DNA of 37,100 nucleotides, taken from IMG/VR virus record IMGVR_UViG_2718218139_000003; one strand, 5' to 3'. The DNA is from a virus. Taxonomy: Duplodnaviria > Heunggongvirae > Uroviricota > Caudoviricetes. Below, piece after piece: positions 9,119-31,648 of this stretch (position 1 is its first letter; every line of letters starts with the position of its first letter). Position numbers and translations under genes: made by a program. The notes under the pieces were generated by a model that was given only the letters and a program-made list of their open reading frames with translations, was not told the DNA's origin and ran no database searches.

Positions 9119-9613
9119 ATGGCCATGATGATGATCTATGGCATGTTTGTTTTTGAGCTGCGCACACTGCCGCATCAGCAGTTACAGCAAAACAAAAGCT
9201 GGCGGCATGTGAAAAATGAACGCGTTAACCGTTCAGCAAGCTGGCAGTATATCGGTGCAGGTGATGATCGCATCGTTCTTTCTGGTGTGCTTTATCCTGA
9301 AATTACAGGTGGCGAAGTGTCGCTGTCGCTGCTGACCACGCAGGCGTATACAGGACGACCCTGGCCTTTGATTGATGGCGTCGGGCAGATTTACGGCATG
9401 TATGTCCTGACCGGAACGAATACGACCCGTTCCGAGTTTGATCGCTACGGTAAGGCGAAAAAGATAGAATTTTCACTGACTCTTGAACGCTGTGATGAGG
9501 ATTTGCGGGAGCGCCTGCAATCCTCATCGTTCAGCGATATGTTGTCCGGCTTCAAAGATAAGGTGACATCATCCCTTAATAGCGCGACCAGCTCAGTTAA
9601 GGGGCTGCTCTGA
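9119..9613 (+). CDS. U: Tail protein (P2 gpU-like)
   Basis: 164 aa, directly downstream of the tape measure. Confidence 0.7.
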   Translation: MAMMMIYGMFVFELRTLPHQQLQQNKSWRHVKNERVNRSASWQYIGAGDDRIVLSGVLYPEITGGEVSLSLLTTQAYTGRPWPLIDGVGQIYGMYVLTGTNTTRSEFDRYGKAKKIEFSLTLERCDEDLRERLQSSSFSDMLSGFKDKVTSSLNSATSSVKGLL

Positions 9614-9769
9614 TTTAACGTATGTCGCCAATTTCCTGATGAAGGTGACTGGCGACTTGCTGTTGTATGTCCTTCTCAGAAAATTGTTTTTGAATAACAA
9701 ACAACAGGATTTTATAATCTCTTAACCTTATAATATGTGTGGTCTGAAATAATAATTAAGGAGATTATC

Positions 9770-10342
9770 GTGCTGTCTTACTTAATGGCAATTCACTTTG
9801 TTTTATTTGGGAACTCTACTAATTTAAAAAACTTCTGGAAATATGAAGTAATTCGGCGGAAACGTATGGATATCTGGAGGCTTTTAAGAGAGAAAAAACA
9901 GCGTAACCGGAATTTCCTTTTCTGGTGGCGGTTGGCTAACGAAATGTATATTAATGGTAATAAATTACATAAGAAAGCAGCCAAAAAGTTAAACAGTAAA
10001 ATAATTAACAAATTTGGTTGTGAAATTGGATTGGGCGCAAATATTGGAAAAGGGTTAACAATTCCCCATCATGCTGGAATTGTTGTTCATTTTGCTGTTG
10101 ATGCTGGTGAAAATCTGGTGTTACGACAGAATACTACCATTGGACAGATAGATGGTGACATGCCTGGTTCAAGAGTAAAAATTGGTAGTAACGTTGATAT
10201 CGGAGCTAATTGTTGCATCATTGGATTATCACGTAAAATTGGGGATAATGTAAAAATAGGTGCAATGTCTTTTATAAATAAAGATATACCATCGAACTGC
10301 ACATATATAACTAAAAAGAGCGGTGTTGTATTGTATAAATAG
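9770..10342 (+). CDS. Hexapeptide-repeat acetyltransferase (CysE/WcaB/NodL-like left-handed beta-helix), AT-rich cargo gene
   Basis: Strong RBS taaggag 7 bp before GTG 9770; [LIV]-G-x-x-x-x-I hexapeptide repeats (IGANIGKGLTI, IGSNVDIGANCCIIG, IGDNVKIGAMSFI); markedly lower GC than flanking phage genes. Confidence 0.7.
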   Translation: MLSYLMAIHFVLFGNSTNLKNFWKYEVIRRKRMDIWRLLREKKQRNRNFLFWWRLANEMYINGNKLHKKAAKKLNSKIINKFGCEIGLGANIGKGLTIPHHAGIVVHFAVDAGENLVLRQNTTIGQIDGDMPGSRVKIGSNVDIGANCCIIGLSRKIGDNVKIGAMSFINKDIPSNCTYITKKSGVVLYK

Positions 10343-10350
10343 AGTACATA

Positions 10351-10385
10351 AAGCCATCTATATTTCTGTCGATGGCTTTTTCTCT
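10351..10385 (+). terminator. Rho-independent terminator (aagccatc...gatggctt + TTTTCTCTTT), potentially bidirectional between the acetyltransferase and G
   Basis: 8-bp stem followed by T-tract immediately after the acetyltransferase stop. Confidence 0.55.
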
Positions 10386-10964
10386 TTATTGTGGGGCGAC
10401 TGGCCACTCAACATCCGCTGCTACCGCTGTATTAACACGATTCAACAATACCCGGTATGTCTTCCATGCAGCCAGTAACGATGCCTCTTCCTCCGTTGCA
10501 ATATCCAAATCTACGGCATCCTGAAGTGGCGCAATATGCTCGCTGGCTACCTGCATCAGGCTGTTTTTTGTTTCTTCCGCCTCCCTTATCCGAAACAGTT
10601 TTTCTGCTTCTGCATCTTTCACCCAGGATGTGCCGTTCCACTTCTGATACTCTCCATCCGGCGACAACCAGGTAACATTTTCCGGTAATGGACCGAGTTC
10701 AGAAATAAATAACGAGTCCCCTGATGCCACGTCATAAACCGTTTTACCCCGATGGTCTTCAACGAGATGCCACGATGCCTCATCACTGTTGAAAACGGCC
10801 ACGAAGCCAGCCGGAATATCTGGCGGGGCAATATCGGTACTGTTTGCAGGCAGACCTGTATGAGGTGGAATGTATGCATCACCTTCACCAATAAACTCAT
10901 TGGTTCCGGTCAGTAGATTATAAATTTTTATGGTCCGTGATTGTTCACTCATTCTGAATGTCAT
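10386..10964 (-). CDS. G: Tail fibre assembly protein (P2 gpG / Tfa-like)
   Basis: 192 aa directly downstream of the tail fibre gene. Confidence 0.75.
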
Positions 10965-13101
10965 TATGCAAGCCTCACAATATAGTTAAATGCGATGTTT
11001 TTTACGGTGTTTTCTGCGTTCCCCGTAGCATTAACGGTGATGGTGTGTCCGTGGGGACCAATAATGACAGAATGGGCATGAGCACCAATGCCGATAGTGT
11101 GGTTATGGGCACCGATATATACATTGTGAGCATGCCCTCCTGCGCTCGACGTGGTACCAGTACCTAACGCAGCGTTATAACCGGCTGATACACCATTCCC
11201 CGCGCCAGTGTGACCAACAGGTATATTGTGTGAATGAGCTCCTGCGCTATTTGTGGTTTTTGTGCCGTAATCAAATGAACTGGTCGTTTTAGTACCGTAA
11301 TCAAACGACGATGTGGTTTTCGTCCCCAAATCAGTACTGGATGCGCTGGCGCTGTGGGTGTGCGATTTAATGCCGTCCTGTTCCTGAGACAATACGGCAC
11401 GACCACTGGCAGGTTTGCCCTTGATAGTCCAGCCACGCATATCAGGGATCACGCCTGACGGATAAGCGACTGCAAGTTTCGGGTATGCAGATTTGTCAAA
11501 AGTCTGCCCTTGCATCAGGGCATAACCAGACGGAACGGTATCTGATGGCCACGGAATCGGTGCACCGACTGGATAAAACTCTTCAGGAGGATGAGCCGAG
11601 GTGTAAAGCTGCGCCCACGGCGACCAGTTTGCGTCGGTCGTATCCCGTCGTGAACGAATAAATGCCGGAGCATGAGCACCGCTTATACCACTCCAGCCGA
11701 TGAGTAATTCGCCTTCGCCAACGGCTGTCATCCCTTTCAGGTGAATGATATTTCCATACGTTGTTGGATATCCGTTGTTATACGCCTCGTATAACTCCAG
11801 ACCTGTGGCCCCCTGCATATTATCTGTCAGGGCGGTCAGCCGACCTTTTGAAGCCAGATTAACTGACGATACTGCTGTCCCATCTGACGGTAACGCCCCG
11901 ATCTCTGATGCTGTTGGCTTATTCCTGGAGTTATAGTCCCTTCGCCAGCCAGGAGCATAAGCATCACCATGATTAATATAAGTAAATTGAGCATTAGGGA
12001 TGCCTTCACCGCTGGATGTACTCGGTGTGGTAATGCGTATGGTCATTGCGCCGCGGGTGCCAATAACTTCCACAACAGCACCTGCAAGACAAATATTTCC
12101 GCAACCTGTATCTGTAATGACCTTATTACTTGCATAAGCCCATGAGCCTTTGCACATCCAGTAAGGATGGTTAAATGCCCCCTGACTCTCTAGCCAAAAA
12201 ATCAACTGCGCAGTTGTCCATGCTTCACTATCTCCACCAATATTCAGCTCTGCACTATATGCACGGCAGGCACCGATATTTTTCGTAAAGGTGTCTTTGT
12301 CAGAGATATCCTCACCATTCTTAGCTTTCTGCAGACGTTTTTCAGCATTGTCATAGGCAGCTTTTACTGCATTTGATGTTGCCGCCAGCGTTTCAGATGT
12401 ACTGTTGGTTGCACTACTAAGCTGGACAAGGCCTTTTCGCGCTGTTGTTGCGTCCTGAGCGGTATATTTCCCGTTAGCAAGGTCATGTCATAGGCTGTCT
12501 TGACCGCTTTCGGCGTTGCGGCCAGTGCTTCAGACGTGCTGTTAGTGGCGCTACTGAGTTGAACAAAGCCTTTTGCGGTCAGCGAGGCGTCCGGGTGACG
12601 TCGTGACTGTTCATGTTCTTTCAGTTTGTCATTCACGTAATCCACTGTGGCCATCACCATGGTGTTATCCACGGTAAGCGCCACGGTAGCAGTGCTGGAT
12701 ACGGTCAGAATGGTGCGAAATGTTTGTGCACGTCCGGACCCCTCGGCAACGGTTGGTTTGTAACTTTCGGCAGTATTGCCCACCGCGATTAAATCGCCGT
12801 GCTCATCAAATACACCAATTTCCCGGATCCAGAATCCGCCCGTTTCAGGAGGAATAACCAGCTCCGCAATAATGCGGTTCTGATGTGTTGCGTCCAGGAT
12901 GACGCGATTAACAGTATGTCGCCACACCTCATGCACCAGACGGGTCTGCTTACTGTCTGGTGTGGGCAACGTGCCGCCACCGTCGCCCACGGCCATGTGA
13001 GTCAGGCGGACAGGATTACCATCTGGCGCGGCTGCCTGAGCTAATTTTTTGGCACCAGTATCAGTGATAATGGTTTTAAATTTTCGTGTTGTGGTACTCA
13101 T
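10964..13101 (-). pseudogene. H: Tail fibre protein (P2 gpH-like) disrupted by a 1-nt frameshift near 12477; N-terminal frame 12364-13101, C-terminal frame 10964-12500
   Basis: N-terminal ORF reads ...[15 protein letters not shown] then goes out of frame; the other frame continues ...[34 protein letters not shown]..., i.e. a second copy of the internal repeat; restoring one G rejoins the frames. Confidence 0.75.
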
Positions 13102-13103
13102 GC

Positions 13104-13667
13104 TTAATCGTCCGGATAAATGGTAATGACTTCACCGTCGTAAGTTGCTGCCGCCGCGAAAATATCCCCCGGGATCTCCTGAATGATATTCAGCCCTGTC
13201 ATGTGGCGGCTGACCGGGCGGGCATCAGCAATCAACCGCTCCATTTCCAGATACATTTCCTCCGTCACGCCACTGTCCAGCGTGCCGACTTCAACGGTAA
13301 ATGTTCCCGGTTCTCCGCCGAACTCCCACCACTCAGACACACGAATGAGGTATCCCAGCGGCTCAATGGCCCGGCGCAGTGCGCTGATGGTCCCTTTGTG
13401 TCGGTGTATCAGCCATGCATCACGAATCACCTGTCGCTTTGTCTCTTCCGGCCAGTTGCGATCCCAGCGGTCAACGGAAAATGCCCAGGCGAGATAAGGC
13501 AGCAGATGCACCGGGCAGGTGTCCGGCGACCACAGCGTGTTGAGGTCTACCGGAATGTCTGTAATGCGCGTTCCGACAGCTTCGGCACAACGCATGAAAT
13601 TGCTGGCTGATGGCGGTAACAGTGAATTACTCATTACGCCCACCTTCGCTGATGGTGAATGACTCAC
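13104..13667 (-). CDS. I: Baseplate protein (P2 gpI-like)
   Basis: Synteny and size. Confidence 0.7.
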   Translation of the reverse strand: MSHSPSAKVGVMSNSLLPPSASNFMRCAEAVGTRITDIPVDLNTLWSPDTCPVHLLPYLAWAFSVDRWDRNWPEETKRQVIRDAWLIHRHKGTISALRRAIEPLGYLIRVSEWWEFGGEPGTFTVEVGTLDSGVTEEMYLEMERLIADARPVSRHMTGLNIIQEIPGDIFAAAATYDGEVITIYPDD

Positions 13668-21510: not shown

Positions 21511-23262
21511 ATGATTCAGGACGCTTTTGTGCGCCAGCGTGCGCGGCAACTTTACTGGCAGGGTTATCCGCCCGCAGAAATATCACGTCTGATGGGAATA
21601 AACCCGAACACGATTTATGCGTGGAAAAAACGCGACCAGTGGGATGAAACGCCCCCCGTGCAGCGTGTCACGCAGTCCATCGATGCGCGCCTCATCCAGC
21701 TTACTGAAAAACAGAATAAAACAGGCGGTGACTTTAAGGAAATAGACCTGCTGACCCGGCAGCTTAAAAAGCTGCATGATGGCCAGCCGGATGTGATGGC
21801 CGCAGGAAAGAAAGGCCGGGCGAAAAAACTTAAAAATCATTTCACGCCGGAACAGATTGCCGCACTGCGGGAAAAAATCATCAGCAGGCTGGAGTGGCAT
21901 CAGCGGGGCTGGTTTGACTCCCTGACACTTTGCAGGGAAGCCGGGATACGTAACAGGATGATCCTGAAATCCCGACAGATTGGGGCGACCTGGTATTTTG
22001 CACAGGAAGCTCTGCTGATGGCGCTGCGTGACGATGTGGCGCAACCTTACCAGCGTAACCAGATTTTTTTGTCTGCGTCGCGTCGTCAGGCGTTCCAGTT
22101 TAAAAGCATTATTCAGAAGGCCGCGGCTGAAGTTGATGTGGAGCTGAAAGGGGGCGATAAAATCATCCTCTCCAACGGCGCAGAGCTGCATTTTCTCGGC
22201 ACTTCTGCTGCGTCGGCACAGTCCTATACGGGCAATTTTTATTTTGATGAATTTTTCTGGGTCAGTCGCTTTGCTGAACTGCGCAAGGTGGCTGGCGCTA
22301 TGGCAACCCTCAGCGGACTGCGGCGCACCTACTTCTCCACACCATCCACCGAAACGCACGAGGCGTACGCCTACTGGAACGGCGACCGCTGGAACGAGAA
22401 AAAGGCCTCGCATAAACGCCAGCGTTTTTCTGTGGACTGGAAAACGCTGCATAACGGGCTTATCTGCCCTGACCGGACTTGGCGGCAAATTGTCACGCTG
22501 GAAGATGTGGTTAATCACGGCTGGAAACACACCGATATCGACGAAATTCGTGATGAAAACACCGAAGACGAGTTCCTCAATCTCTATATGTGTGAGTTTG
22601 TCCGCGAAGGGGAATCGGCATTTAACCTGAATATCCTGATTGGCTGCGGTGTTGACGGATACGACGACTGGAAAGACTGGAAACCTTTTGCTCCCCGCCC
22701 GATGGGGAATCGTCCGGTATGGATTGGGTATGACGCAAACGGCAGCAGTGGCAACGGCGACAGCGGTGCTGTGTCCGTGGTGGTTCCTCCGGCTGTTCCT
22801 GGTGGCCGTTTTCGAACGGTGGAGACGCGACGCGTTCAGGGGCTGGAGTTTGAAGAACAGGCCAGAGTCATTGAAGAGTTCACGTGTCGCTATAACGTGG
22901 AACACATCGGCATTGATGTGACGGGCGGGAACGGGGAGGCTGTTTATCAGATAGTGAAACGGTTTTTCCCTGCTGCTATTCCGTACACCTTCACGCTGTC
23001 ATCAAAACGGTCGCTGGTACTGAAAATGCTGCAAATAATGCGTGCCGGGCGGTGGGAATACGATCGCGCCGAACGCGAGCTGGTCGCGGCCTTTAACGCC
23101 GTGCGTAAGGTGAAAACACCGGGCGGCTTTATCACTTACGAAACGGACCGCGCGAGGGGGATCAGCCACGGCGACCTTGCGTGGGCAACCATGCTTGCTG
23201 TCATTAACGAACCGATTGGCGGCGAAGGAGAAAACGAGCGTTTCACGGTTATGGAGTTCTGA
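21511..23262 (+). CDS. P: Terminase large (ATPase) subunit (P2 gpP-like)
   Basis: 583 aa; divergent from the O gene; overlaps the portal start. Confidence 0.8.
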   Translation: MIQDAFVRQRARQLYWQGYPPAEISRLMGINPNTIYAWKKRDQWDETPPVQRVTQSIDARLIQLTEKQNKTGGDFKEIDLLTRQLKKLHDGQPDVMAAGKKGRAKKLKNHFTPEQIAALREKIISRLEWHQRGWFDSLTLCREAGIRNRMILKSRQIGATWYFAQEALLMALRDDVAQPYQRNQIFLSASRRQAFQFKSIIQKAAAEVDVELKGGDKIILSNGAELHFLGTSAASAQSYTGNFYFDEFFWVSRFAELRKVAGAMATLSGLRRTYFSTPSTETHEAYAYWNGDRWNEKKASHKRQRFSVDWKTLHNGLICPDRTWRQIVTLEDVVNHGWKHTDIDEIRDENTEDEFLNLYMCEFVREGESAFNLNILIGCGVDGYDDWKDWKPFAPRPMGNRPVWIGYDANGSSGNGDSGAVSVVVPPAVPGGRFRTVETRRVQGLEFEEQARVIEEFTCRYNVEHIGIDVTGGNGEAVYQIVKRFFPAAIPYTFTLSSKRSLVLKMLQIMRAGRWEYDRAERELVAAFNAVRKVKTPGGFITYETDRARGISHGDLAWATMLAVINEPIGGEGENERFTVMEF

Positions 23263-24308
23263 TGAGCAGAAAAAATAAAAAAGTGCGCATGAGTTCACGC
23301 ATTGATCTCGCTGATGCGCTCAGGAAAGAATCATCGCTCAGTGCATTCACATTTGATGGTCCTTATCGCCTGACCGGGCATGACCTGCTGGATAATATGT
23401 ACTGTGCTGATAACGGGCGGTGGTATGAAACCCCGGTGGACTGGTACGGTCTGGCAAGAGCTGCCCGGCAAACGTCCTGGCATCAGTCTGCGCTTTACTT
23501 TAAGCGCAATGTATTACTCGGTTGCTACATCCCGCACCCGCTGCTTTCCCGGCAGGATTTCTCGGCGCTGGCGCTGGACTGGTTTGTGTTCGGTAACGCA
23601 TTCCTTGAGCTTCGTAGCAATATGCTCGGCGAACCGCTTAAATTACGGCACGCCCTGGCGAAATACATGCGACGCGGAAGCGATCTTGAATCATGGTGGT
23701 ATGTGCAGGATGGCAAGGACGCGTTCCAGTTTCGCCCTGGCAAAGTGTGCCACCTGATGAATCCGGATATTAACCAGGAAATCTACGGCATGCCGGAATA
23801 TCTTGGCGCATTACTCTCGGCCAGCCTTTCTCATTCGGCGGACATGTTCAGAAAACTGTACTACGACAACGGATCCCACGCCGGGTGCATCATCTACATC
23901 GGTGCAGCGCAGGTAAACCGCGAAAGCATGGACTCCCTGAAAGAAACGTTACAAGGTGCGCGTGGTGGTGGTGCGTTTAAAAACGTGCTCATCCACGCGC
24001 CCAACGGGGGCAAAGAGGGGGTGCAAATTTTGCCGTTCCAGCAGATCACCGCAAAGGATGAGTTCATGAATGTTAAGGCGGCATCCCGTGATGATGTGCT
24101 GGCTGCGCACCGCGTTCCGCCGCAACTGATGGGGGCAATGCCGGGCGAAAAAAGTGCGTTTGGTGATGTGGAGAAGGCCGCGCGGGTTTATGCAATTAAC
24201 GAGCTGATGCCCGTTATGGAGGCCATGAAGCACATCAATGACTGGCTTGGCGAAGAGGTGATCCGTTTTAATTCTTATGCTCTTCTTGATGAAAAAACAG
24301 CCCCGTGA
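23262..24308 (+). CDS. Q: Portal protein (P2 gpQ-like)
   Basis: 348 aa; follows terminase P. Confidence 0.8.
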   Translation: MSRKNKKVRMSSRIDLADALRKESSLSAFTFDGPYRLTGHDLLDNMYCADNGRWYETPVDWYGLARAARQTSWHQSALYFKRNVLLGCYIPHPLLSRQDFSALALDWFVFGNAFLELRSNMLGEPLKLRHALAKYMRRGSDLESWWYVQDGKDAFQFRPGKVCHLMNPDINQEIYGMPEYLGALLSASLSHSADMFRKLYYDNGSHAGCIIYIGAAQVNRESMDSLKETLQGARGGGAFKNVLIHAPNGGKEGVQILPFQQITAKDEFMNVKAASRDDVLAAHRVPPQLMGAMPGEKSAFGDVEKAARVYAINELMPVMEAMKHINDWLGEEVIRFNSYALLDEKTAP

Positions 24309-24325
24309 TGGGGCTGTCCTTTTTA
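24297..24325. terminator. Bidirectional rho-independent terminator shared by Q and the convergent 174-aa gene
   Basis: acagcccc-gtgat-ggggctgt stem flanked by A6 upstream and T5 downstream; Q stop codon lies in the loop. Confidence 0.65.
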
Positions 24326-24847
24326 CCAGAGTTGAACCATTTTCTGGGTGCCGTCAGGCTTGAGATTATCAATTTCAGAGAGAACGTAATATTGAATGGC
24401 TTCACAAACGGTGGTGTATGGTGACTTACCTTCTTTAAGTGGCACGATATTATTATTAACGCGAACCTGTATTTCATCGTTATACATTGCGATCGAAAGA
24501 GGAGTATGCACGAAGGCGACTTCGCCAGGTGTGTCGTCAACCACTGTCTCAATGCTGAAAATCAGTTTTCGCTCATCATTGCCGCCCCTTGCTTTGGGGG
24601 TAGCGGCAGGAATCTGAGATAAAGGCATTCTACGAAACCCTTCAGTTGTTTCCAGTCCGCATGAAACGTAATGCTGGCGATTACCGTCGCTATCCGTCCA
24701 TGTCTGTGATGGCAGCTCCAGAGAGATTTCATAAGCATCAACAATTCCCTGGGCAATGCGTACAAGTGGGGTCAGGTCTTCATTGCGGCGAAAACTCTCC
24801 TTTACCTGATCTCGTTTTTCTCGTAACTGCTTGTAATTAATGACCAT
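24323..24847 (-). CDS. Hypothetical protein, 174 aa (start at MVINYKQ with RBS ggagg)
   Basis: Clean ORF with good RBS; no family recognised by eye. Confidence 0.55.
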   Translation of the reverse strand: MVINYKQLREKRDQVKESFRRNEDLTPLVRIAQGIVDAYEISLELPSQTWTDSDGNRQHYVSCGLETTEGFRRMPLSQIPAATPKARGGNDERKLIFSIETVVDDTPGEVAFVHTPLSIAMYNDEIQVRVNNNIVPLKEGKSPYTTVCEAIQYYVLSEIDNLKPDGTQKMVQLW

Positions 24848-25406
24848 AAAACAGCCTCCATTGATTTCTTTGCTCGTATTTTGCACTTATGAAGTGTGGT
24901 CGGCAAGGTGCCGCATCACTGACGCGCTTCGCTTGTCTGCTGCTTCGCCGGGGCATAAAAAATTTATGCCCCGGCTCTCCAGCTCCTGTATCAATCAGAT
25001 AATTTCACGACGCCTTCCAGTTTATCGCCACCATCGACGGTCAGACTCTTACGCAATCCCACCGCGTTGACTGTATGTTCTCGCTGCCTCAGTGCGATTT
25101 TGACGGCCTTACCTTTCACCCCATCAAATCAAAAGCCCTCACGCCTTTTTCATGCTCAGCGTGAGAAATATGGCCATTCTGTTGTGTCTCTGCGACATCG
25201 TTCAGGGAATGCTATTTACCCCCTGAAACGCGGGCTGTTCCCCCGTCACCTGCGCGCAGAAAAAACGCGTTTTTTTGTGCACGCACGGATCCTTGACGGA
25301 TCCAGCCGCCACGCGGGCCGGAAGGGCAAAAATTCGTTCAAAAAAATTGTGCAAATTTGTGCACTATTGTGCATTGAAATAAACGCTCTGGAGGAGGGCG
25401 TTTTAC

Positions 25407-25814
25407 TTATCTTTTATAGCCTTGCCCCTTCCTGGCCAGCGCCCTGATGGCCGGGCGTGCCAACACCATATTTTGGCAATGATGAATTGCCCGGCAAAAT
25501 TCATCTCTACCCATTGGATGCTCAACTGGCAACGTTAAATACAGGTTCCATGCGTCGCCTAAAAGTTGGGCTATCTTTTGTTCTTCAGATGTCAGCAAGC
25601 AAGCGGTATCCGTAAAATAATCATACTTTTCATGTATGTTATTTAACGGTTTTGTCTGTAGTGCAGCCTGAGCTATACGGTATGCCTGAAGCATACTGGC
25701 GTCGTTGATATCCATTCCGAACGGAATTTCTGATGATTGTGACTCTGCATCTTCAAGCCTGGCAATTTCTTTACGTAAGAAGTATTTCAACTCTTGTTTC
25801 TGTTTTCTGTTCAT
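25407..25814 (-). CDS. Hypothetical protein, 135 aa, translationally coupled (4-bp overlap) to the upstream zinc-ribbon gene
   Basis: ORF with ATGA-type overlap; no recognised motif. Confidence 0.5.
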
Positions 25815-26143
25815 GCGTTTTTTTCCTTTTTGTCTGTCACTTCTTTCCTGATAATTTCATTGCACAAATCCACGCACTCATTGCAGATGTAAACAGACGG
25901 TCCGGCAATCACCTTTGTGACTTCGTACTGGGATTTATTGCAGAAACTGCAATAAACCGTCTTCTCGCCTGAAGTCCATGTTTTGCTGGTTTCGCCAGAC
26001 ATCAGTTGTTTGAGGTCTTTTTCACGACGAAGAACTATCTGGCCACATTCAGCTATTTTTTGGATGTTGACATTTTCTTCTTTCGCCAGCGCTTCCATCC
26101 GCTCAATCAGTCGCTGCGCTTTTTCTCTGTCAATGTGTTGCAT
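25811..26143 (-). CDS. Small protein with a C-terminal ClpX-type C4 zinc-binding domain (ZBD-like) fused to an unrelated helical N-terminus
   Basis: Residues about 63-100 [40 protein letters not shown] nearly match the ClpX N-terminal zinc-binding domain as I recall it ([39 protein letters not shown]); strong RBS aaggggga. Confidence 0.7.
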
Positions 26144-26206
26144 TGTGTCCCCCTTGTTTATGCTCCCGGGTTAAAGTCATCAGGGCGGATGCGCCCTGAT
26201 GTTGTG

Positions 26207-26518
26207 TTATTCGGGAAATAACGCCCGGATATTTCCGGCCATCTGACTGGTTATCTGTGCGGCTGATACTGGCTGTGACGCGGGGCGTTCTGTCCTGGTT
26301 TGTGTCACTGATAACGCCTCATCATCAGCCCATGCAGCCAGTCGGTAAGCCTCTGCCGGATTCATTTTCAGTAGTGCCAGCCCGGCCAGAAAAGCCACGC
26401 GTTGGCCGCTTTTGCGGGCTTCTGGTGTAAGGCTGTCCAGCCAGGCGCATGCTTCGCCTTCGTTCTTGACGGCGGCGGGCTTCAGATAGAAACTTATCCG
26501 TCTGGTTGGTGTCGGCAT
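26207..26518 (-). CDS. ParR/StbB-like centromere-binding adaptor (103 aa)
   Basis: RISFYLKP...LDSLTPEARKSGQRVAFLAGLALL...IRALFPE parallels plasmid R1 ParR as I recall it; start 4 nt after the ParM-like stop with RBS aggag. Confidence 0.6.
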   Translation of the reverse strand: MPTPTRRISFYLKPAAVKNEGEACAWLDSLTPEARKSGQRVAFLAGLALLKMNPAEAYRLAAWADDEALSVTQTRTERPASQPVSAAQITSQMAGNIRALFPE

Positions 26519-26522
26519 TGGT

Positions 26523-27482
26523 TTACTCCTTGTCCATTGCGTACAGCCCATTAACCAGAGCAAACTGTGGCACCCCGTCCGCGATGAAAGTCGCATTAAC
26601 TCCGCAGGCTTCGCGGATAGCGGGTGCCACAATCTCCGCTCCGCCACCGACAACCATCACCCGCCCGTAACCCGAAAAACCCGCCAGCGCGCGGATCACG
26701 CGTTGTTTCAGTGTTTCTTCCTTTTCACGAATAACCGCCATCAGGCTGGCGTAATGCGCGTCATTGTGGATGTGCTGGCGCAGCCAGGCTTCATCATGGC
26801 GATGTTCGATAATGGTATTGGCGATGTGGTGACTGGTACGCATACCGTTAGTGGCCATCACCGACAGTACGGCATCGGCCATCAGGGAAACGCCTACGTG
26901 TGGATCGCAAAACACCTGGCTGATACCTGCCAGTTGTCCCTGAACCTTTGCCACATCCAGCGTGGTTCCGCCCAAATCCACAATCAGCAGGGATTCAAAC
27001 GGACTCATGTCAGCCAGTGCCTTAAAGCCAGCCGGAATGGATTCAGGCATAACCCGTACATTACGGATAGTGAATGCCTTACCGTTCTGGTACTCCACCG
27101 GGCGCATGACGTTCGCTTTTTTGCGGTTGATGTTGGCCATGTCCGGCTGTGCGTTTGTGTCGAAATACTCGCTCAGTGGCAGGGTGACAACCACATCCAC
27201 TTCCTGTGGTGTGATGCCTGATTTGACCAGCGCGTGATGAATGGCAATTACATTCACATCGCTGTACTGGTATTGCGTGTCGGTCGTCTGGACAAAGCGA
27301 TCGCTGATCGGATCAAAACCATAGCGCACGCCATCAAGCATGTAGTTCGCAGGCTGTGAGCCACCGAACGGCGCAGACCATTCCGACTTGAAGCTGTTCG
27401 GGCTGATGGCGTTGCGGCGTTCGCCGTTCTCAGTCCATGCCAGCTTGATGTTGGTGGAGCCGTCGTCGATACAAATTTTCAT
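26523..27482 (-). CDS. ParM/StbA-like actin-family segregation ATPase (319 aa)
   Basis: N-terminus MKICIDDGSTNIKLAW and downstream ISPNSFK, FDPIS, YSDVNVIAIHHAL...EVDVVVTLPL blocks parallel plasmid R1 ParM (MLVFIDDGSTNIKLQW...). Confidence 0.75.
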   Translation of the reverse strand: MKICIDDGSTNIKLAWTENGERRNAISPNSFKSEWSAPFGGSQPANYMLDGVRYGFDPISDRFVQTTDTQYQYSDVNVIAIHHALVKSGITPQEVDVVVTLPLSEYFDTNAQPDMANINRKKANVMRPVEYQNGKAFTIRNVRVMPESIPAGFKALADMSPFESLLIVDLGGTTLDVAKVQGQLAGISQVFCDPHVGVSLMADAVLSVMATNGMRTSHHIANTIIEHRHDEAWLRQHIHNDAHYASLMAVIREKEETLKQRVIRALAGFSGYGRVMVVGGGAEIVAPAIREACGVNATFIADGVPQFALVNGLYAMDKE

Positions 27483-27512
27483 GTCGCTTTTCCTTATGTT
27501 GGTTAATTAACC

Positions 27513-27626
27513 GTTTACGGGATTCTGAAATCCCGTTTTTGCCTGTTTTGTGCGCGCTTCATATATCGCTGCGCGTTTTTTGCTCATTTACGGGATTCGT
27601 GAGTCCCGTTTCTGTCTGTTTTTTGT
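27513..27626. repeat. Two about 41-bp direct repeats (27513-27553 and 27586-27626), each with the inverted repeat ACGGGA-N8-TCCCGT; candidate parC-like centromere/operator
   Basis: Seen directly; located immediately upstream of the ParM-like gene. Confidence 0.5.
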
Positions 27627-28023
27627 TTCCACTGGTCAGGCCACCCCGCAGCAGGTCTGCTTTGCGGCGGGCGCGTTCAGTGGTTTCACTGATTCTCTGT
27701 GCGTGCTCTGCGTCGCGGATGGCGCGCAGCATGTCAGAAAGCACGGTAACGGGTGTTTTCATGGTGTTCTGGTCCTGCTGAAGTGTGGATGCCAGGCGTG
27801 CGGCGGCTTCGGGGTCTGATGCCCCCAGCTGTTCCAGATAGCTGGCGACAGGGTTATGGCGGATCTCCGTGCTGCTTACGCCGTGATTACGGCTCAGGCG
27901 TTGCCAGAGCTGCGTGATTCGGCTGTCCGGGCGGGTATCCGGTTTGCGTACAATTTCAAATCCCTGCGGTGCAATGATGCTGCCGTCAACGTACAGACTG
28001 CCGCCCCGTAACAGGTGCAGCAT
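27559..28023 (-). CDS. Hypothetical protein, 154 aa; 3' end overlaps the second direct repeat, so the true extent is uncertain
   Basis: ORF only; weak RBS; low-complexity C-terminus. Confidence 0.3.
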   Translation of the reverse strand: MLHLLRGGSLYVDGSIIAPQGFEIVRKPDTRPDSRITQLWQRLSRNHGVSSTEIRHNPVASYLEQLGASDPEAAARLASTLQQDQNTMKTPVTVLSDMLRAIRDAEHAQRISETTERARRKADLLRGGLTSGNKKQTETGLTNPVNEQKTRSDI

Positions 28024-28083
28024 CTGCTGTTCACCAATATGTAGGCCGAGAGATTCAGCAGACTCCCGCCATTCTTTAGCGAG

Positions 28084-28268
28084 TCACTCGTGGTTATCAG
28101 GCAAAGGTCGCGGCTGTTTGCGGCTCTGTGTCCAGTTCTGCATTTCATCACTGTTGTTTTTTGCCTGTTTGTCACGCAGCGAACGCATCAGCGCCCGGCG
28201 TTCGTGCCGTTTCAGTGAGTGCAGCCATTCGTTCACTTCAACACCGTCAGGGATCTGCGGCCACGGTG
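28084..28268 (-). pseudogene. A: Replication initiation protein A, C-terminal 61 codons separated from the rest by the IS600 insertion
   Basis: Frame joins in-frame to 29533-31648 when the IS and one copy of GTG are removed. Confidence 0.7.
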
Positions 28269-28332
28269 TGAGGTAGCCTGAGTTTAACGGACACTCCTTC
28301 CTGAAATAGAATGGCATCAGAAGGAGCTAATA

Positions 28333-28635
28333 ATGAGCAGAAAAACCCAACGTTACTCTAAAGAGTTCAAAGCCGAAGCTGTCAGAACGGTTCTTGAAAA
28401 TCAACTTTCGATCAGTGAAGGCGCTTCCCGATTATCTCTTCCTGAAGGCACTTTAGGACAATGGGTTACCGCCGCCAGAAAAGGGCTCGGTACTCCTGGT
28501 TCCCGCACGGTGGCTGAACTGGAATCTGAAATTCTGCAACTGCGTAAGGCGTTAAATGAAGCTCGCCTTGAGCGAGATATATTAAAAAAAGCAACAGCGT
28601 ATTTTGCACAGGAGTCGCTGAAAAATACGCGTTAA
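28333..28635 (+). CDS. IS600-like transposase OrfA; A AAA AAA -1 frameshift site at 28584-28590
   Basis: Identical protein to 4384-4686. Confidence 0.8.
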   Translation: MSRKTQRYSKEFKAEAVRTVLENQLSISEGASRLSLPEGTLGQWVTAARKGLGTPGSRTVAELESEILQLRKALNEARLERDILKKATAYFAQESLKNTR

Positions 28636-28670
28636 TCGAACAATGGCGACAACAATTTCCCATTGAAGCG

Positions 28671-29489
28671 ATGTGTCAGGTATTTGGTGTATCCAGGAGC
28701 GGTTATTACAACTGGGTACAGCATGAACCCTCAGACAGAAAACAAAGTGATGAGCGGCTAAAACTGGAGATTAAGGTGGCACATATCCGCACTCGCGAAA
28801 CATATGGAACCCGGCGGCTCCAGACGGAGCTGGCAGAGAATGGCATCATCGTTGGTCGTGACCGACTGGCACGTCTTCGTAAGGAGCTAAGGCTACGCTG
28901 TAAGCAGAAACGCAAGTTCAGAGCGACTACGAACTCGAACCACAATCTGCCAGTTGCGCCAAATCTGCTGAACCAGACGTTCGCTCCTACAGCACCAAAT
29001 CAGGTCTGGGTGGCGGACCTGACGTATGTTGCCACACAGGAGGGATGGTTGTACCTCGCTGGCATCAAAGATGTTTATACGTGCGAAATTGTCGGCTACG
29101 CCATGGGAGAGCGCATGACAAAAGAGCTGACAGGTAAAGCCCTGTTTATGGCGCTCAGGAGCCAGCGCCCACCTGCCGGGCTAATCCACCACTCTGATCG
29201 AGGTTCACAGTACTGCGCATACGATTACCGGGTCATACAGGAGCAGTTTGGTCTGAAAACATCAATGTCGCGTAAAGGTAACTGTTACGACAACGCTCCG
29301 ATGGAAAGCTTCTGGGGAACGCTGAAAAATGAGAGCCTGAGCCACTATCGTTTTAATAACCGGGATGAAGCCATCTCAGTAATACGGGAATACATTGAGA
29401 TTTTCTACAATCGTCAGCGTCGTCACTCTCGTCTGGGGAATATCTCCCCGGCAGCCTTCAGGGAAAAATATCATCAGATGGCTGCTTAA
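28671..29489 (+). CDS. IS600-like transposase OrfB
   Basis: Identical protein to 3530-4348; frame open from 28572, overlapping orfA in -1 frame. Confidence 0.8.
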   Translation: MCQVFGVSRSGYYNWVQHEPSDRKQSDERLKLEIKVAHIRTRETYGTRRLQTELAENGIIVGRDRLARLRKELRLRCKQKRKFRATTNSNHNLPVAPNLLNQTFAPTAPNQVWVADLTYVATQEGWLYLAGIKDVYTCEIVGYAMGERMTKELTGKALFMALRSQRPPAGLIHHSDRGSQYCAYDYRVIQEQFGLKTSMSRKGNCYDNAPMESFWGTLKNESLSHYRFNNRDEAISVIREYIEIFYNRQRRHSRLGNISPAAFREKYHQMAA

Positions 29490-29532
29490 AAAAAGAACAA
29501 ATGGTAGTGTCCGCTATTGCCAGTACACCTCA

Positions 29533-31648
29533 GTGCTGGCCGTTCTTCCGGCTGTTCTGTCCCGTTGTTGTCCGTTTCCTGTACACGAGGACAGTTATTG
29601 CCACGAGTCCAAGGGGCGGCAGGGCCGCCCTGAAGGTCAAAACCATTTTCGCGGGCGCTGTCTTCCACTTCCGGTTTACGTCTTACCAGCTTCCAGTTAT
29701 CCGGATGCGTGCACACACGGGAGGATTCCCCGATGAATGGCGACCAGATCCCGTAAATCTGTACACTCTGTTCGCCGTAATCGTTCAGCTCATCTGCGAG
29801 GTCGTAGGCGGTGCGAATCAGGTAGTCCTTGCGCGGAACAAGTACGCCACCCTGTTTTTCAATGTAGGTGGCAAAACATCCGGCATCAGCGGCAGCGAGT
29901 ACCGCATCCATTGCGTCATCCTTCAGCCGTTGCGGGCCTTCCGGGTTGCGTGCCATCTGGCTGGCAAGGCGGCGGAGTTCACGCCACACCTGACGGGAGG
30001 GGATGCCAAAGAACTGGAACTGGCGGACCCGGTGAAGGCGCGCCCAGCCGATGGCGCGCTCCACACTCTCGGCCATTGATTTACCTGTTTCGTGTTCAAC
30101 GCGTGGCTTGCCCGTTTTCGGGTCGATGCCATCCACGGCACGGCTGTCCAGGTTTTTCCCTATGTAGGTGGCGATGTAGCTGGTCGGTGTGCCTTTTGAG
30201 CCGTCGACGTACTCCGCCTTAAAGCGTGGGGTAATATCATCACCCAGCTCGTGACGATCTTCCTGAATGGCAATATCGCGGGTGTGGGACACAATGGTGT
30301 CGATTTCTTCCGGATGTGCAAAGACCATCATATGCCAGTGCACGGTGCCGTCATGGTGAGGCTCCACCGTGCGGATGCCATACCAGCGCAGGCCGTCGCG
30401 GTTCAGTTTCTTGCGGACCGCCGCAAAAAACGTGTTAACCAGGTAATCACTGGAGTCGCGCATGGTGGCCCCGTTCCATTTGGGATTCGGATGACCGTTC
30501 TCTGTTGTGGCGTGGTATTTTGACGGGCAGGTGACAGTCAGAAACACCGCTCTGTCGCCACGGGCTTCGGCCAGAAGTTCCAGCCCCTTCATGGTGGCCA
30601 TCATTTCTGCCTTACGGTGAACCGGGTTACTTACTCCCGCGTAATACACCGTTTCGAGATCAATCGTGAACCCATCTTCATTTTCCAGCATGAAACTTTT
30701 CAGGAAATCGCGTGTTTTCTCGCGCTGTGCGCGAAACTCGCTTAACGCGTCCTGGCTCAGATAGGGTGATGTTTTTCTGGAAACCAGACAGGCGGCGCGG
30801 AGTTGTTCTTCTCTCCACTCGCAACGTAACAGCCACAGTTTGCGTTTCCACCATTCCGCACAGGTCAGGCGAAGGATTGCGCCCGGCAGCAGCTCCGTGT
30901 CCGGTTCGTTCCTCCGGTCTTTGTCTGTTGTCAGTGCGTCATAATGCGGAGGCATGGCGTGCAGGTGTAACGCCATGCGGGCCAGCATTTGATACGCCTT
31001 CAGCGTTACATCCATGGTCAGCTCGCCATCAGTCGCGCCAAAGCCATCGCAGAGTTTTTCGAAGGTGCTGCTGAACATCGCCGCCGTCATGGTGGCCAGC
31101 GTCTGTATCTGGTGCTTGTTGAGCTGCGGCAGGTAAAGCAAATCGTCCAGGCGTTCGCGTCCGGCAAGGGAGCGATAACCCGGTGTCAGCCAGCGGTGGT
31201 CGGTGCGGTCCAGACGTTCGAATATTTTGCGCAGGGTTCCGCGCGCGTAGCGTTCAGCCTGCCAGCTCTTTTTGCCTTTCCGGCGATCGGCTTCCTGTTT
31301 TTTGCGCAGGAAGGAGAGGTGGCGAATAAGCGGATCGCGCAGATAGGACGGCAGCAGGCGCAGCGAGGCCATGGCTTCATCCACCGCACCGCGTGCCTGT
31401 TTTCTGGCGTCTCCTGCCAGTGTGATGGTTTTGTCCTGTTTTTCCTGTGCGTCCAGGCTTTTATTAATCAGGTTGCCCAGCGGCGTGGCGGAGAATGCCG
31501 CATCAGCCATTTCCTGGCGGCGCTCGTTCTCTGCCCGGTAGGCATCCAGCCAGGAGGAAAGCGCGGATTCAGGAGCGGGGATCCCCGTTCCTTCACGCCC
31601 CACTGCGTGGCGCGGTTGTTGCCAGTCCCTGATGTACTCTGCCGTCAT
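29533..31648 (-). pseudogene. A: Rolling-circle replication initiation protein (P2 gpA-like), N-terminal 705 codons; interrupted near the 3' end by IS600
   Basis: HUH-type motif HDGTVHWHMMVF; size about 766 aa when rejoined with 28084-28268. Confidence 0.75.

Follow-up and report, generated by a model that had tools for sequence, protein, structure and literature searches.

Do the genes between the portal gene Q and the replication gene A of a P2-type prophage form an undescribed system, as an earlier note on this DNA proposed, or are they a collection of unrelated parts? We examined this in a window of 37,100 nucleotides, the whole stretch analysed, in which the interval corresponds to the known gpA-gpQ variable region, as had been recognised before. 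We consider it likely that the interval is a cos-proximal accessory region, a mosaic of independent parts and not one system. The patchwork comprises a piece of gene A, a ParM/ParR module, a probable cos and three independent small genes, and it is already on record from roughly one E. coli genome in four. Of these parts only one is notable, a protein that stands alone and carries a zinc-binding domain with 83% identity to the one in host ClpX.

The prophage and its interrupted replication gene

The window holds a defective, decaying P88-like (Xuanwuvirus) prophage of the P2 type. PhiR44_2 and P88 phages were 97% identical to the window with conserved gene order, and an identical arrangement, but with gene A intact, was found in E. 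coli STEC1590. Gene A of the window is divided as follows.

27559..28269, minus strand: 3' fragment of replication gene A (phrog_6857 positions 621-680 and 702-855; alignment to P88 gene A; reconstruction)
28270..29533, plus strand: IS600, 1264 bp, inserted in gene A with a 3-bp target duplication (breakpoints against the intact STEC1590 gene A)
29534..31648, minus strand: 5' part of replication gene A, a gpA-type nicking endonuclease (Phage_GPA family matches in relatives)

Six minus-strand genes had been counted in the interval. Five were found intact at the positions given for them, but the sixth, a 154-aa unknown (27559-28023), was rejected as a gene of its own and represents codons 787-940 of gene A. 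This ORF matched positions 702-855 of the 855-position gpA-type family phrog_6857 (E = 8.5e-87) and aligned base for base to the 3' end of P88 gene A. Removal of IS600 and one copy of the 3-bp target duplication restored an in-frame gene A of 2823 nt, interrupted only once, by a premature TGA at codon 766 (window 28084-28086) in place of the Leu found in relatives. These comparisons showed the fragment to be the dead 3' end of a replication gene A cut by IS600. As gene A is both split by IS600 and interrupted by a nonsense codon, replication of this phage is probably impossible. The insertion was 100% identical to elements annotated 'IS3-like element IS600 family transposase'. A second, identical IS600 copy is located at 3487-4749, and comparison with an intact P88-like genome indicated that ~2.4 kb of backbone had been deleted by a second IS600.

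The ParM/ParR module

27514..27625: candidate parC/operator, two 39-nt direct repeats (D1/I1) immediately upstream of parM
26523..27482, minus strand: ParM/StbA actin-like segregation ATPase, 319 aa (PF06406, E = 4.5e-82; PF21523, E = 1.3e-68)
26207..26518, minus strand: ParR/StbB-type partition adaptor, 103 aa (PF10784, E = 3.9e-24; phrog_2515 'partition protein')
26178..26201: hairpin with a 10-bp stem between parR and the zinc-finger gene, without a U-run on the coding strand

ParM matched R1 ParM (1MWK) over its full length (E = 1.2e-92) and retained the motifs DDGSTNIKL, DLGGTTLD and GGGAE. ParR, annotated as a 312-bp CDS in relatives, had no detectable relative in the PDB. The Pfam families and the R1 ParM match upheld the earlier view of ParM-ParR as a real functional module, and judged by these matches the two proteins are a genuine R1-type partition pair. 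Tight coupling had been described for the region; this was confirmed for the zinc-finger and 135-aa genes, which share a 4-bp ATGA overlap, whereas parM and parR are separated by a 4-nt spacer without overlap, the ribosome-binding site of ParR lying within the 3' end of parM. The hairpin downstream of parR is also kept in strain KOr024.

The candidate parC repeats (27514-27552 and 27587-27625) lie 73 bp apart and each contain the palindrome ACGGGA-N8-TCCCGT. Nowhere else in the window was this palindrome matched exactly; with up to two mismatches allowed, 5 matches were observed versus 1.09 expected. The presence of only two palindromic sites counts against an R1-like reading, as parC of R1 contains ten 11-bp iterons in two blocks of five. 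Nevertheless, we infer that ParM, ParR and the upstream palindromes constitute a putative type II (R1-like) partition module that has become fixed in this phage lineage.

Such a module would be an extension of the gene-A operon, in which ParR would bind the repeats and cap ATP-driven ParM filaments, and the filaments would push apart copies of the circular, non-integrated phage genome. Partition would act after infection, excision or replication, with daughter cells retaining the genome until integration or packaging. A comparable role has been reported for SrpMRC on the excised forms of SXT/R391 ICEs (PMC4489591) and for AlpAC, encoded by the Corynebacterium prophage CGP3 (PMC4446434).

ParM-ParR DNA was detected in 1306 of 5426 complete E. 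coli genomes, and according to Rousset et al. 2022 (PMC9122126) about one quarter of P2-like phages carry a putative system for plasmid partitioning. The gene set is therefore not atypical of P2-like phages, contrary to what the earlier note had believed. Moreover, for ParM-ParR an annotation as a known system exists already in related prophages, a finding which that note had itself named as grounds for giving up its proposal of an undescribed system.

Within complete E. coli genomes, ParMR was situated at 1452 chromosomal places versus 2 on plasmids. This near-exclusively chromosomal location indicates that the phage integrates, so that a partition system has no obvious benefit for it. The same distribution (1452 of 1454 places) argues against a suggestion by Rousset et al. 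(PMC9122126), namely that ParMR would let P88-like phages persist as stable low-copy plasmid prophages, beyond a transient circular form. Apart from having been stated in print, that suggestion is favoured by the close relationship of this ParM to plasmid R1 ParM and by one complete assembly in which the whole P88-like genome is a 34,461-bp circular replicon, but this single record may be an excised, induced phage. These phages also keep integrase, Cox and repressor, and we know of no plasmid maintenance by the route of P2-type gpA rolling-circle replication. Persistence as a plasmid prophage is in our estimation unlikely, and we prefer partition of the circular, non-integrated genome.

The zinc-finger and 135-aa proteins

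25811..26143, minus strand: ClpX-zinc-finger protein, 110 aa (PF06689, E = 6.8e-18; PDB 1OVX/2DS5, E = 7e-20)
25407..25814, minus strand: chimeric small protein, 135 aa (phrog_660 on aa 1-64; phrog_13916 on aa 70-134)

The 110-aa protein consists of a helical N-terminal domain followed by a ClpX-type C4 zinc-binding domain, and matched ClpX NCBIfam models at positions 6-54 only. Of 36 core residues, 30 were the same as in E. coli ClpX, among them the four Cys and those of the C-terminal helix; across the family alignment, the N-terminal halves were far more divergent than the zinc-binding domain. The protein stands alone in Salmonella P2-like prophages and phage D6; in these, and in P2-like prophages of E. 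coli, neither ParMR nor the N-terminal module of the 135-aa protein accompanies it. Among 41 close IMG/VR loci, four with 93-98% identical ParM carried a zinc-finger allele just 37-51% identical. The zinc-finger gene is a small early gene independent of the others.

The conserved domain suggests that the 110-aa protein is possibly a ClpX N-domain decoy. As a decoy or heterodimer partner of that domain it would titrate adaptors and substrates that need it, and some phage or host protein would be shielded from ClpXP. The opposite outcome can also be envisaged, in which the protein recruits: it would form a heterodimer with the ClpX N-domain while its own helical domain hands over one particular protein, of the host or of a competing phage, for degradation by ClpXP. 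Consistent with recruitment, the dimer-forming C-terminal helix (ECVDLCN-IIR) hardly differs from the one in host ClpX, and the N-terminal domain, kept as a domain yet fast-diverging and swapped between alleles, fits a target-recognition module. However, zinc-binding-domain dimers are reported to be stable, so that subunit exchange with ClpX hexamers is uncertain. We doubt that the protein is a recruiter and retain the decoy as its possible role.

Two shuffled modules make up the chimeric 135-aa protein. Its N-module (aa 1-57) is common to P88 gp20-type proteins, and its C-module (aa ~60-135) is elsewhere a stand-alone protein of 76-86 aa, encoded directly after gene A in Pectobacterium and Yersinia prophages. 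It is a recombinant in which a common helical 'handle' at the N-terminus has been joined to a small C-module, also helical, and is probably a protein-binding accessory factor. Its AF2 model was all-helical, of low confidence (pLDDT 56) and too poor to use.

The zinc-finger and 135-aa genes had been regarded as a functional module. They are indeed translationally coupled, yet the pairing is not obligatory: the zinc-finger gene has been cleanly deleted between 14-bp direct repeats, with the 135-aa gene left intact, in lineages such as KOr024 and O26 and in a 34.5-kb circular phage. ParM/ParR was present in 40 of the 41 close loci, and an N-module gene lay downstream in only 27. Retention of this junction makes some functional coupling of the zinc-finger gene and the N-module possible. 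One could go further and suppose that the two proteins act as toxin and antitoxin, as an abortive-infection pair, or as an adaptor and its substrate linked to ClpXP turnover. Their small size, the ATGA overlap and the 27 loci would agree with this, as would the degradation of several antitoxins by ClpXP (PMC8808172). Nonetheless, the losses in KOr024, O26 and the circular phage, the solitary zinc-finger protein of Salmonella prophages and D6, the C-module occurring alone after gene A, and the lack of similarity to known toxin or antitoxin families in Pfam and PADLOC make such a pair very unlikely.

The 174-aa cassette and the probable cos

24272..24918: swappable cassette with the 174-aa gene, including the last ~12 codons of Q (synteny break)
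24292..24322: hairpin resembling a bidirectional terminator, where portal gene Q and the 174-aa gene converge (inverted repeat I7; 9 pairs, then a T-run)
24323..24847, minus strand: 174-aa protein, phrog_5091, a lone moron-type gene
24919..25406: conserved noncoding region with the probable cos (~25310-25329), kept in all P88-like relatives

Relative to an intact P88-like genome, synteny was broken exactly at 24271/24919, and the cassette is absent from P88 and pZ1323PEC0009-2. Members of the 174-aa family are lone genes in several accessory slots. The family is a diffuse one of solitary 'moron' genes, whose expression from the prophage is plausible, and our guess for the 174-aa protein is a role in superinfection exclusion or counter-defence. 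That it is a virion or assembly accessory protein, and not a lysogenic-conversion or defence gene, seems improbable.

Both ends of the linear phage P88_4B11 record fall at the window equivalent of 25328|25329. This suggests a probable cos at ~25310-25329, a position that depends on the linearisation of one database record. The noncoding region showed no significant similarity to P2 cos and no match in Rfam. Together, the probable cos and a conserved noncoding stretch of ~490 bp part the 174-aa cassette from the other genes, which contradicts the description of the interval as one island.

Assessment of a defence function

Could the genes between Q and A nevertheless be one or two undescribed anti-phage defence systems in the P2 old/tin slot? 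They are located in the gpA-gpQ hotspot, home to many defence systems; three of the proteins are without annotated function in Pfam and phrog; the zinc-finger and 135-aa genes overlap; and positions 25001-26000 have a GC content of 0.46, below the 0.54 of the ParMR segment. On the other hand, no PADLOC or Pfam defence match was obtained among the interval's proteins, in agreement with the earlier statement that none resembles a described defence system. The parM, parR, zinc-finger and 135-aa genes are co-directional with gene A and extend its operon, whereas old and tin of P2 are transcribed the opposite way from their own promoter. Furthermore, the six 'genes' include a fragment of a pseudogene, ParMR belongs to the partition systems, and the parts occur independently of one another. 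The whole arrangement was found in 68 E. coli genomes, the zinc-finger gene in 111, the C-module of the 135-aa protein in 111 and the 174-aa gene in 396. Therefore, given the separate occurrence and differing frequencies of the parts, the gene A fragment and the catalogued ParM-ParR, the region is not a coherent undescribed system, and we regard a defence function of this kind as a poor prospect.

Comparison with known systems

The closest known counterpart of the partition module is ParMRC of R1/R100 (ParM/StbA, ParR/StbB, parC). Shared features are a full-length ParM homologue with its nucleotide-binding motifs kept, a StbB-family adaptor gene directly downstream, and repeated palindromic DNA immediately upstream of parM. 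The putative module described here, in contrast, belongs to a P2-type phage that integrates, where it prolongs the gene-A operon, and its candidate centromere has two 39-nt repeats instead of two blocks of five 11-bp iterons. SrpMRC of SXT/R391 ICEs and AlpAC of CGP3 similarly combine an actin-like ATPase and a DNA-binding adaptor in a normally integrated element, and are proposed to act on its excised, replicating circular form (PMC4489591, PMC4446434). They belong, however, to other types of element, and the actin-like family of AlpC is only distantly related to that of the putative P88-like module.

The cargo of the P2 gpA-gpQ hotspot (old, tin and the systems of Rousset et al. 2022, PMC9122126) occupies the same genomic interval, and the same arrangement, with the same 135-aa protein accession, is present in Table S5A of that study. 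Here the genes continue the gene-A operon, in contrast to the opposite orientation and own promoter of P2 old/tin; no defence model is matched; and the 174-aa cassette is placed between Q and cos, a stretch spanning just 187 bp in P2.

With the ClpX N-terminal zinc-binding domain (PDB 1OVX, 2DS5-2DS8) the 110-aa protein shares the C4 type and 30 of 36 core residues, the four cysteines among them, but it is small, has an unrelated helical N-terminal domain and lacks the AAA+ module, and therefore cannot be an unfoldase. T4 PinA and T7 Gp4.5 are phage-encoded inhibitors of the host protease Lon. If the decoy idea is true, the 110-aa protein would resemble them in being small, phage-encoded and able to weaken an ATP-dependent protease of the host; in contrast to both, it would not bind Lon but would mimic a domain of the protease's own substrate-recognition module.

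Genomic setting of the interval

The window proved to be a single P2-type prophage of the P88-like group (genus Xuanwuvirus), bounded on the left by a fragment of a host MFS-transporter gene and on the right by the integrase. We examined the stretch 24323-28083, which an earlier note had described as a cargo island of six minus-strand genes between portal gene Q and replication gene A, atypical of P2-like phages and a candidate for an undescribed system. Its placement in a variable hotspot was correct: terminase gene P and portal gene Q flank the interval on one side and gene A on the other, so that it sits between gpA and gpQ, the location of P2 hotspot defence systems. The gene count stood in part. 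Of the six ORFs, five are genuine genes and the sixth is a pseudogene fragment of gene A; a probable cos site splits the island.

Features of the interval and its flanks
21511-23262, plus strand, terminase gene P
23262-24308, plus strand, portal gene Q
24323-24847, minus strand, gene for a 174-aa protein
about 25310-25329, probable cos site
25407-25814, minus strand, gene for a 135-aa protein
25811-26143, minus strand, gene for a 110-aa zinc-finger protein
26207-26518, minus strand, parR
26523-27482, minus strand, parM
27559-28023, minus strand, 154-aa ORF, 3' piece of gene A
28270-29533, insertion in gene A

Of the 4.2-kb interval, 90% aligned with phage PhiR44_2 at 97% identity, and 62-77% with P88 and a number of other E. 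coli phages at 96-97% identity. An Rfam scan of 23000-29000 (E ≤ 1) returned no RNA family. Elsewhere in the prophage, the tail-fibre region (9500-13220) was not colinear with a reference P88-like genome. It contains a low-GC (0.38) stretch that includes a hexapeptide-transferase-like ORF (9737-10342) and a tail-fibre assembly gene (10386-10964), and the fibre gene is seemingly split between 12364-13101 and 10964-12205.

The 154-aa ORF belongs to a disrupted gene A

In P88, PhiR44_2 and STEC1590, an E. coli relative with the same arrangement, gene A forms one ORF of about 2.8 kb whose end lies 76 nt upstream of parM. The ORF previously listed as a gene for an unknown 154-aa protein matched positions 702-855 of the 855-position gpA-type family phrog_6857 (E = 8.5e-87) as well as the end of phrog_91 ('nicking at origin of replication'), and was colinear with the C-terminus of full-length gpA homologues. 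An adjoining 77-aa ORF corresponded to positions 621-680 of phrog_6857, and the fragment DNA aligned base for base with the 3' end of P88 gene A, save for TGA in place of TTA.

Comparison with the intact STEC1590 gene A delimited an insertion of 1264 bp with a 3-bp overlap (28270-29533), which was 100% identical to elements annotated as IS600 (IS3 family, orfA/orfB, 3-bp target duplication). When IS600 was removed in silico, a 2823-nt in-frame gene A was recovered whose sole defect was a stop at codon 766, and the reconstructed 940-codon ORF was 89% identical to STEC1590 gpA. Therefore, gene A carries two lesions, the IS600 insertion and the stop, and the 154-aa ORF is its 3' piece. A second IS600 (3487-4749, minus strand), 100% identical to the copy in gene A, stands in place of about 2.36 kb of P88-like backbone, equivalent to positions 1551-3912 of pZ1323PEC0009-2. 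The prophage thus has at least three inactivating lesions and is defective.

A plasmid-type partition module

The view that ParM and ParR form a module was upheld by sequence comparison. ParM matched PF06406 (E = 4.5e-82) and PF21523 (E = 1.3e-68), and its residues 2-316 aligned with ParM of plasmid R1 (E = 1.2e-92), with the motifs DDGSTNIKL, DLGGTTLD and GGGAE kept. The parR gene starts 4 nt past the parM stop codon and encodes a 103-aa protein of the StbB family (PF10784, Plasmid_stab_B, E = 3.9e-24), for which a PDB search found no relative. Two 39-nt direct repeats, 73 bp apart, immediately precede parM; each has the palindrome ACGGGA-N8-TCCCGT, which has no other exact copy in the window. 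We consider the repeats a candidate centromere/operator (parC). Judged by these similarities, ParM and ParR are a bona fide partition module.

The gene set had been thought atypical, a view that did not survive a wider search, as 1306 out of 5426 complete E. coli genomes carried ParM-ParR DNA and the arrangement has been catalogued. In an entry of their survey of cargo at the P2 gpA-gpQ hotspot, Rousset et al. 2022 (PMC9122126) place the 135-aa protein itself (WP_001080496) under 'StbA + Plasmid_stab_B + hypothetical'.

What a plasmid-type system does in these phages was considered in the light of their lifestyle. Of the 1454 places at which ParMR was located in complete E. coli genomes, 1452 were chromosomal, and phages with ParMR retain integrase, Cox and repressor; therefore, a stable plasmid lifestyle is unlikely as a rule. 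One complete P88-like genome is on record as a circular 'plasmid' of 34,461 bp from an isolate of E. coli (NZ_CP148288.1, 1-34461). It contains integrase, Cox, repressor, ParMR and the 135-aa gene, lacks the zinc-finger gene, and may be an induced phage that has excised or else a truly extrachromosomal state. The better-supported reading is that ParMR would segregate or position a transient circular form of the phage after infection, excision or replication. Analogues for such a role are the ParM-type system of SXT/R391 ICEs (PMC4489591) and AlpAC of prophage CGP3 (PMC4446434). That a quarter of the P2-type prophages of E. coli, which integrate into the chromosome, keep a plasmid-type ParMRC is a puzzle and still of interest.

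A stand-alone ClpX-type zinc-binding domain

In the 110-aa zinc-finger protein, an N-terminal half that looks helical precedes a ClpX-type C4 zinc-binding domain at the C-terminus (PF06689, E = 6.8e-18). The protein matched the E. coli ClpX domain of known structure (1OVX, 2DS5) with E of about 1e-19 (1OVX, E = 6.9e-20), and between YCSFC and IIR 30 of 36 residues were the same as in ClpX, among them all four cysteines and the C-terminal helix. The AAA+ module with its pore loops and ClpP-binding IGF loop is absent from the protein, which covers only positions 6-54 of the 414-position ClpX NCBIfam model and scores 51 bits against a cut-off of 370. The name 'carboxylate--amine ligase' given to this protein was dismissed as annotation noise, there being no detectable domain behind it. 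Between parR and the zinc-finger gene lies a conserved, GC-rich hairpin (26178-26201) with a 10-bp stem and no U-run on the coding strand, which may serve as an attenuator, as an RNA-stability element or in some other way.

Full-length relatives were restricted to enterobacterial temperate phages. They occur in P88-like phages, in ParMR-free P2-like prophages of Salmonella and E. coli, with the gene invariably placed after gene A and ahead of the portal gene, and, at about 50% identity, in the P1-like phage-plasmid D6 and CMS-2020a. A tie between the zinc-finger protein and the partition system was rejected because the protein is present without ParMR in the Salmonella prophages and D6. Across relatives the zinc-binding domain remains ClpX-like and the N-terminal half is strongly divergent. 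In 4 of 80 IMG/VR loci, ParM was 93-98% identical to that of the window and the zinc-finger allele just 37-51% identical, a pattern suggesting that one allele has replaced another at a set place after parR.

The downstream 135-aa protein is a chimera

The physical coupling noted earlier between the zinc-finger and 135-aa genes is real, as the start of the latter overlaps the stop codon of the former (ATGA). Residues 1-57 of the 135-aa protein (N-module) are common to P88 gp20 and PhiR44_2 proteins with unrelated C-terminal halves, and resemble N-terminal modules joined to other domains in prophage proteins (phrog_660). Residues from about 60 to 135 (C-module) constitute a stand-alone 76-86-aa protein, encoded directly after gene A, in Pectobacterium and Yersinia prophages; the C-module is also free-standing in Hafnia and Enterobacter and has distant relatives in Pseudomonas phages. 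The 135-aa protein is therefore chimeric. Nor is it obligately paired with the zinc-finger protein.

Overlapping genes could encode a toxin-antitoxin pair, which would call for obligate co-occurrence. This failed in both directions, with the zinc-finger gene lost where the 135-aa gene was kept and found alone elsewhere. In KOr024, several O26 genomes and the 34.5-kb circular phage, a deletion running between 14-bp direct repeats (25826-25839 and 26119-26132) has removed the zinc-finger gene and left an identical 135-aa gene. The N-module gene was downstream of the zinc-finger gene in only 27 of 41 close loci. Therefore, neither a toxin-antitoxin nor a strict two-component reading is supported.

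The AF2 model of the 135-aa protein, two helical hairpins and a disordered linker, was of low confidence (pLDDT 56) and was judged too poor for a fold search; that of the 174-aa protein was better (pLDDT 73) and gave no convincing structural neighbour. The 'DNA ligase' label of phrog_13916 was likewise set aside as annotation noise, with no detectable domain. In some relatives the position of the C-module is occupied by extra genes (e.g. PhiR44_2 3000-3491), one of them an 'XF1762 family protein' (PGAP) in E. coli PCN033 and related genomes, which places the variable junction inside the gene downstream of the zinc-finger gene.

A probable cos site separates the 174-aa cassette

The stretch 24919-25406 was noncoding and conserved across all relatives. 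The linear P88_4B11 record (LR595891.1) starts and ends at the equivalent of 25328/25329, G-rich CCACGCGGGCCGGAAGGGCA/AAAATT, and from these termini about 25310-25329 was assigned as the probable cos site. Neither the P2 cos 19-mer (up to 3 mismatches) nor the P2 cos junction, compared with the noncoding stretch by blastn at low stringency, gave a significant match. With cos at about 25328/25329, the 174-aa gene is therefore on the portal side of it.

The 174-aa gene occupies a separate 647-bp cassette (24272-24918), which is absent from P88 and replaced by 33 bp in the 34.5-kb circular phage. Its product belongs to phrog_5091, within a wider family of 78 representative clusters. Neither Pfam nor PADLOC matched the protein, and 35 relatives were also PADLOC-negative. 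The relatives are lone genes in a variety of settings: beside the portal gene in further P2-like prophages, after NinG and ahead of the holin gene in one lambdoid prophage, within the baseplate cluster of a myovirus, or in plain chromosomal context. A genome scan with the close family alignment found one locus only. The 174-aa gene behaves moron-like. The cassette swap also takes in the last 12 or so codons of portal gene Q (24272-24308), which ends in ...FNSYALLDEKTAP in the window and ...FNPYALLDTQPTS in P88.

A mosaic of exchangeable modules

If the genes formed one system, its parts should occur together. Among complete E. coli genomes, ParMR was present in 1306, the 174-aa gene in 396, the zinc-finger gene in 111 and the 135-aa C-module in 111, and the whole arrangement (≥80% coverage) in 68. 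Co-occurrence as a unit thus fails across genomes, as it does in the deletion variant and in the solitary homologues. PADLOC gave no defence match for the interval proteins besides one marginal hit (E = 0.012), and in the main text and available supplements of Rousset et al. we found no mention of the arrangement among the systems tested. The idea of an undescribed system is therefore not sustained, as the parts differ in frequency, occur separately and match no defence model. The arrangement is annotated in RefSeq genomes and catalogued in the literature, and we regard the region as a mosaic whose modules can be exchanged independently of one another within a known hotspot. We give it little weight as a defence candidate, since it is common, catalogued and mostly a known partition module and a pseudogene fragment. 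Its lasting interest lies in the ClpX-domain mimic and in the role of ParMRC in integrating phages.

When supplied in trans, the zinc-binding domain of ClpX on its own competes for substrates that depend on the N-domain, lambda O among them. On this basis the zinc-finger protein could act as a decoy or heterodimer partner for the ClpX N-domain, a proposal that we hold as possible, with the balance against it. We found no characterised phage-encoded ClpX zinc-domain protein in the literature. It is doubtful, and offered tentatively, that the 110-aa mimic blocks or re-aims adaptor- and N-domain-dependent ClpXP proteolysis and that, separately, the family of 174-aa lone genes might provide a new exclusion factor encoded by one gene. 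Such a mimic might shield a phage protein or disarm ClpXP-triggered toxin-antitoxin defences, and its fast-evolving, allele-swapped N-terminal domain would supply target specificity. If true, phages would have a class of host-protease modulator not characterised before. The role of a stand-alone, near-exact ClpX substrate-recognition domain is worth asking after in phages as unlike as P88-like phages, other P2-like phages and D6-like phage-plasmids.

Set beside known systems, the genes of the interval differ in several respects. The P2 genes old and tin run opposite to gene A from their own promoter, whereas parM, parR and the genes for the zinc-finger and 135-aa proteins share the direction of gene A. 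Compared with R1 ParMRC, the candidate parC of the window has fewer repeats. The zinc-finger protein shares with the ClpX unfoldase its C4 zinc-binding N-domain but lacks the AAA+ module; should the decoy proposal hold, domain mimicry would join the known routes of phage control over host proteolysis.
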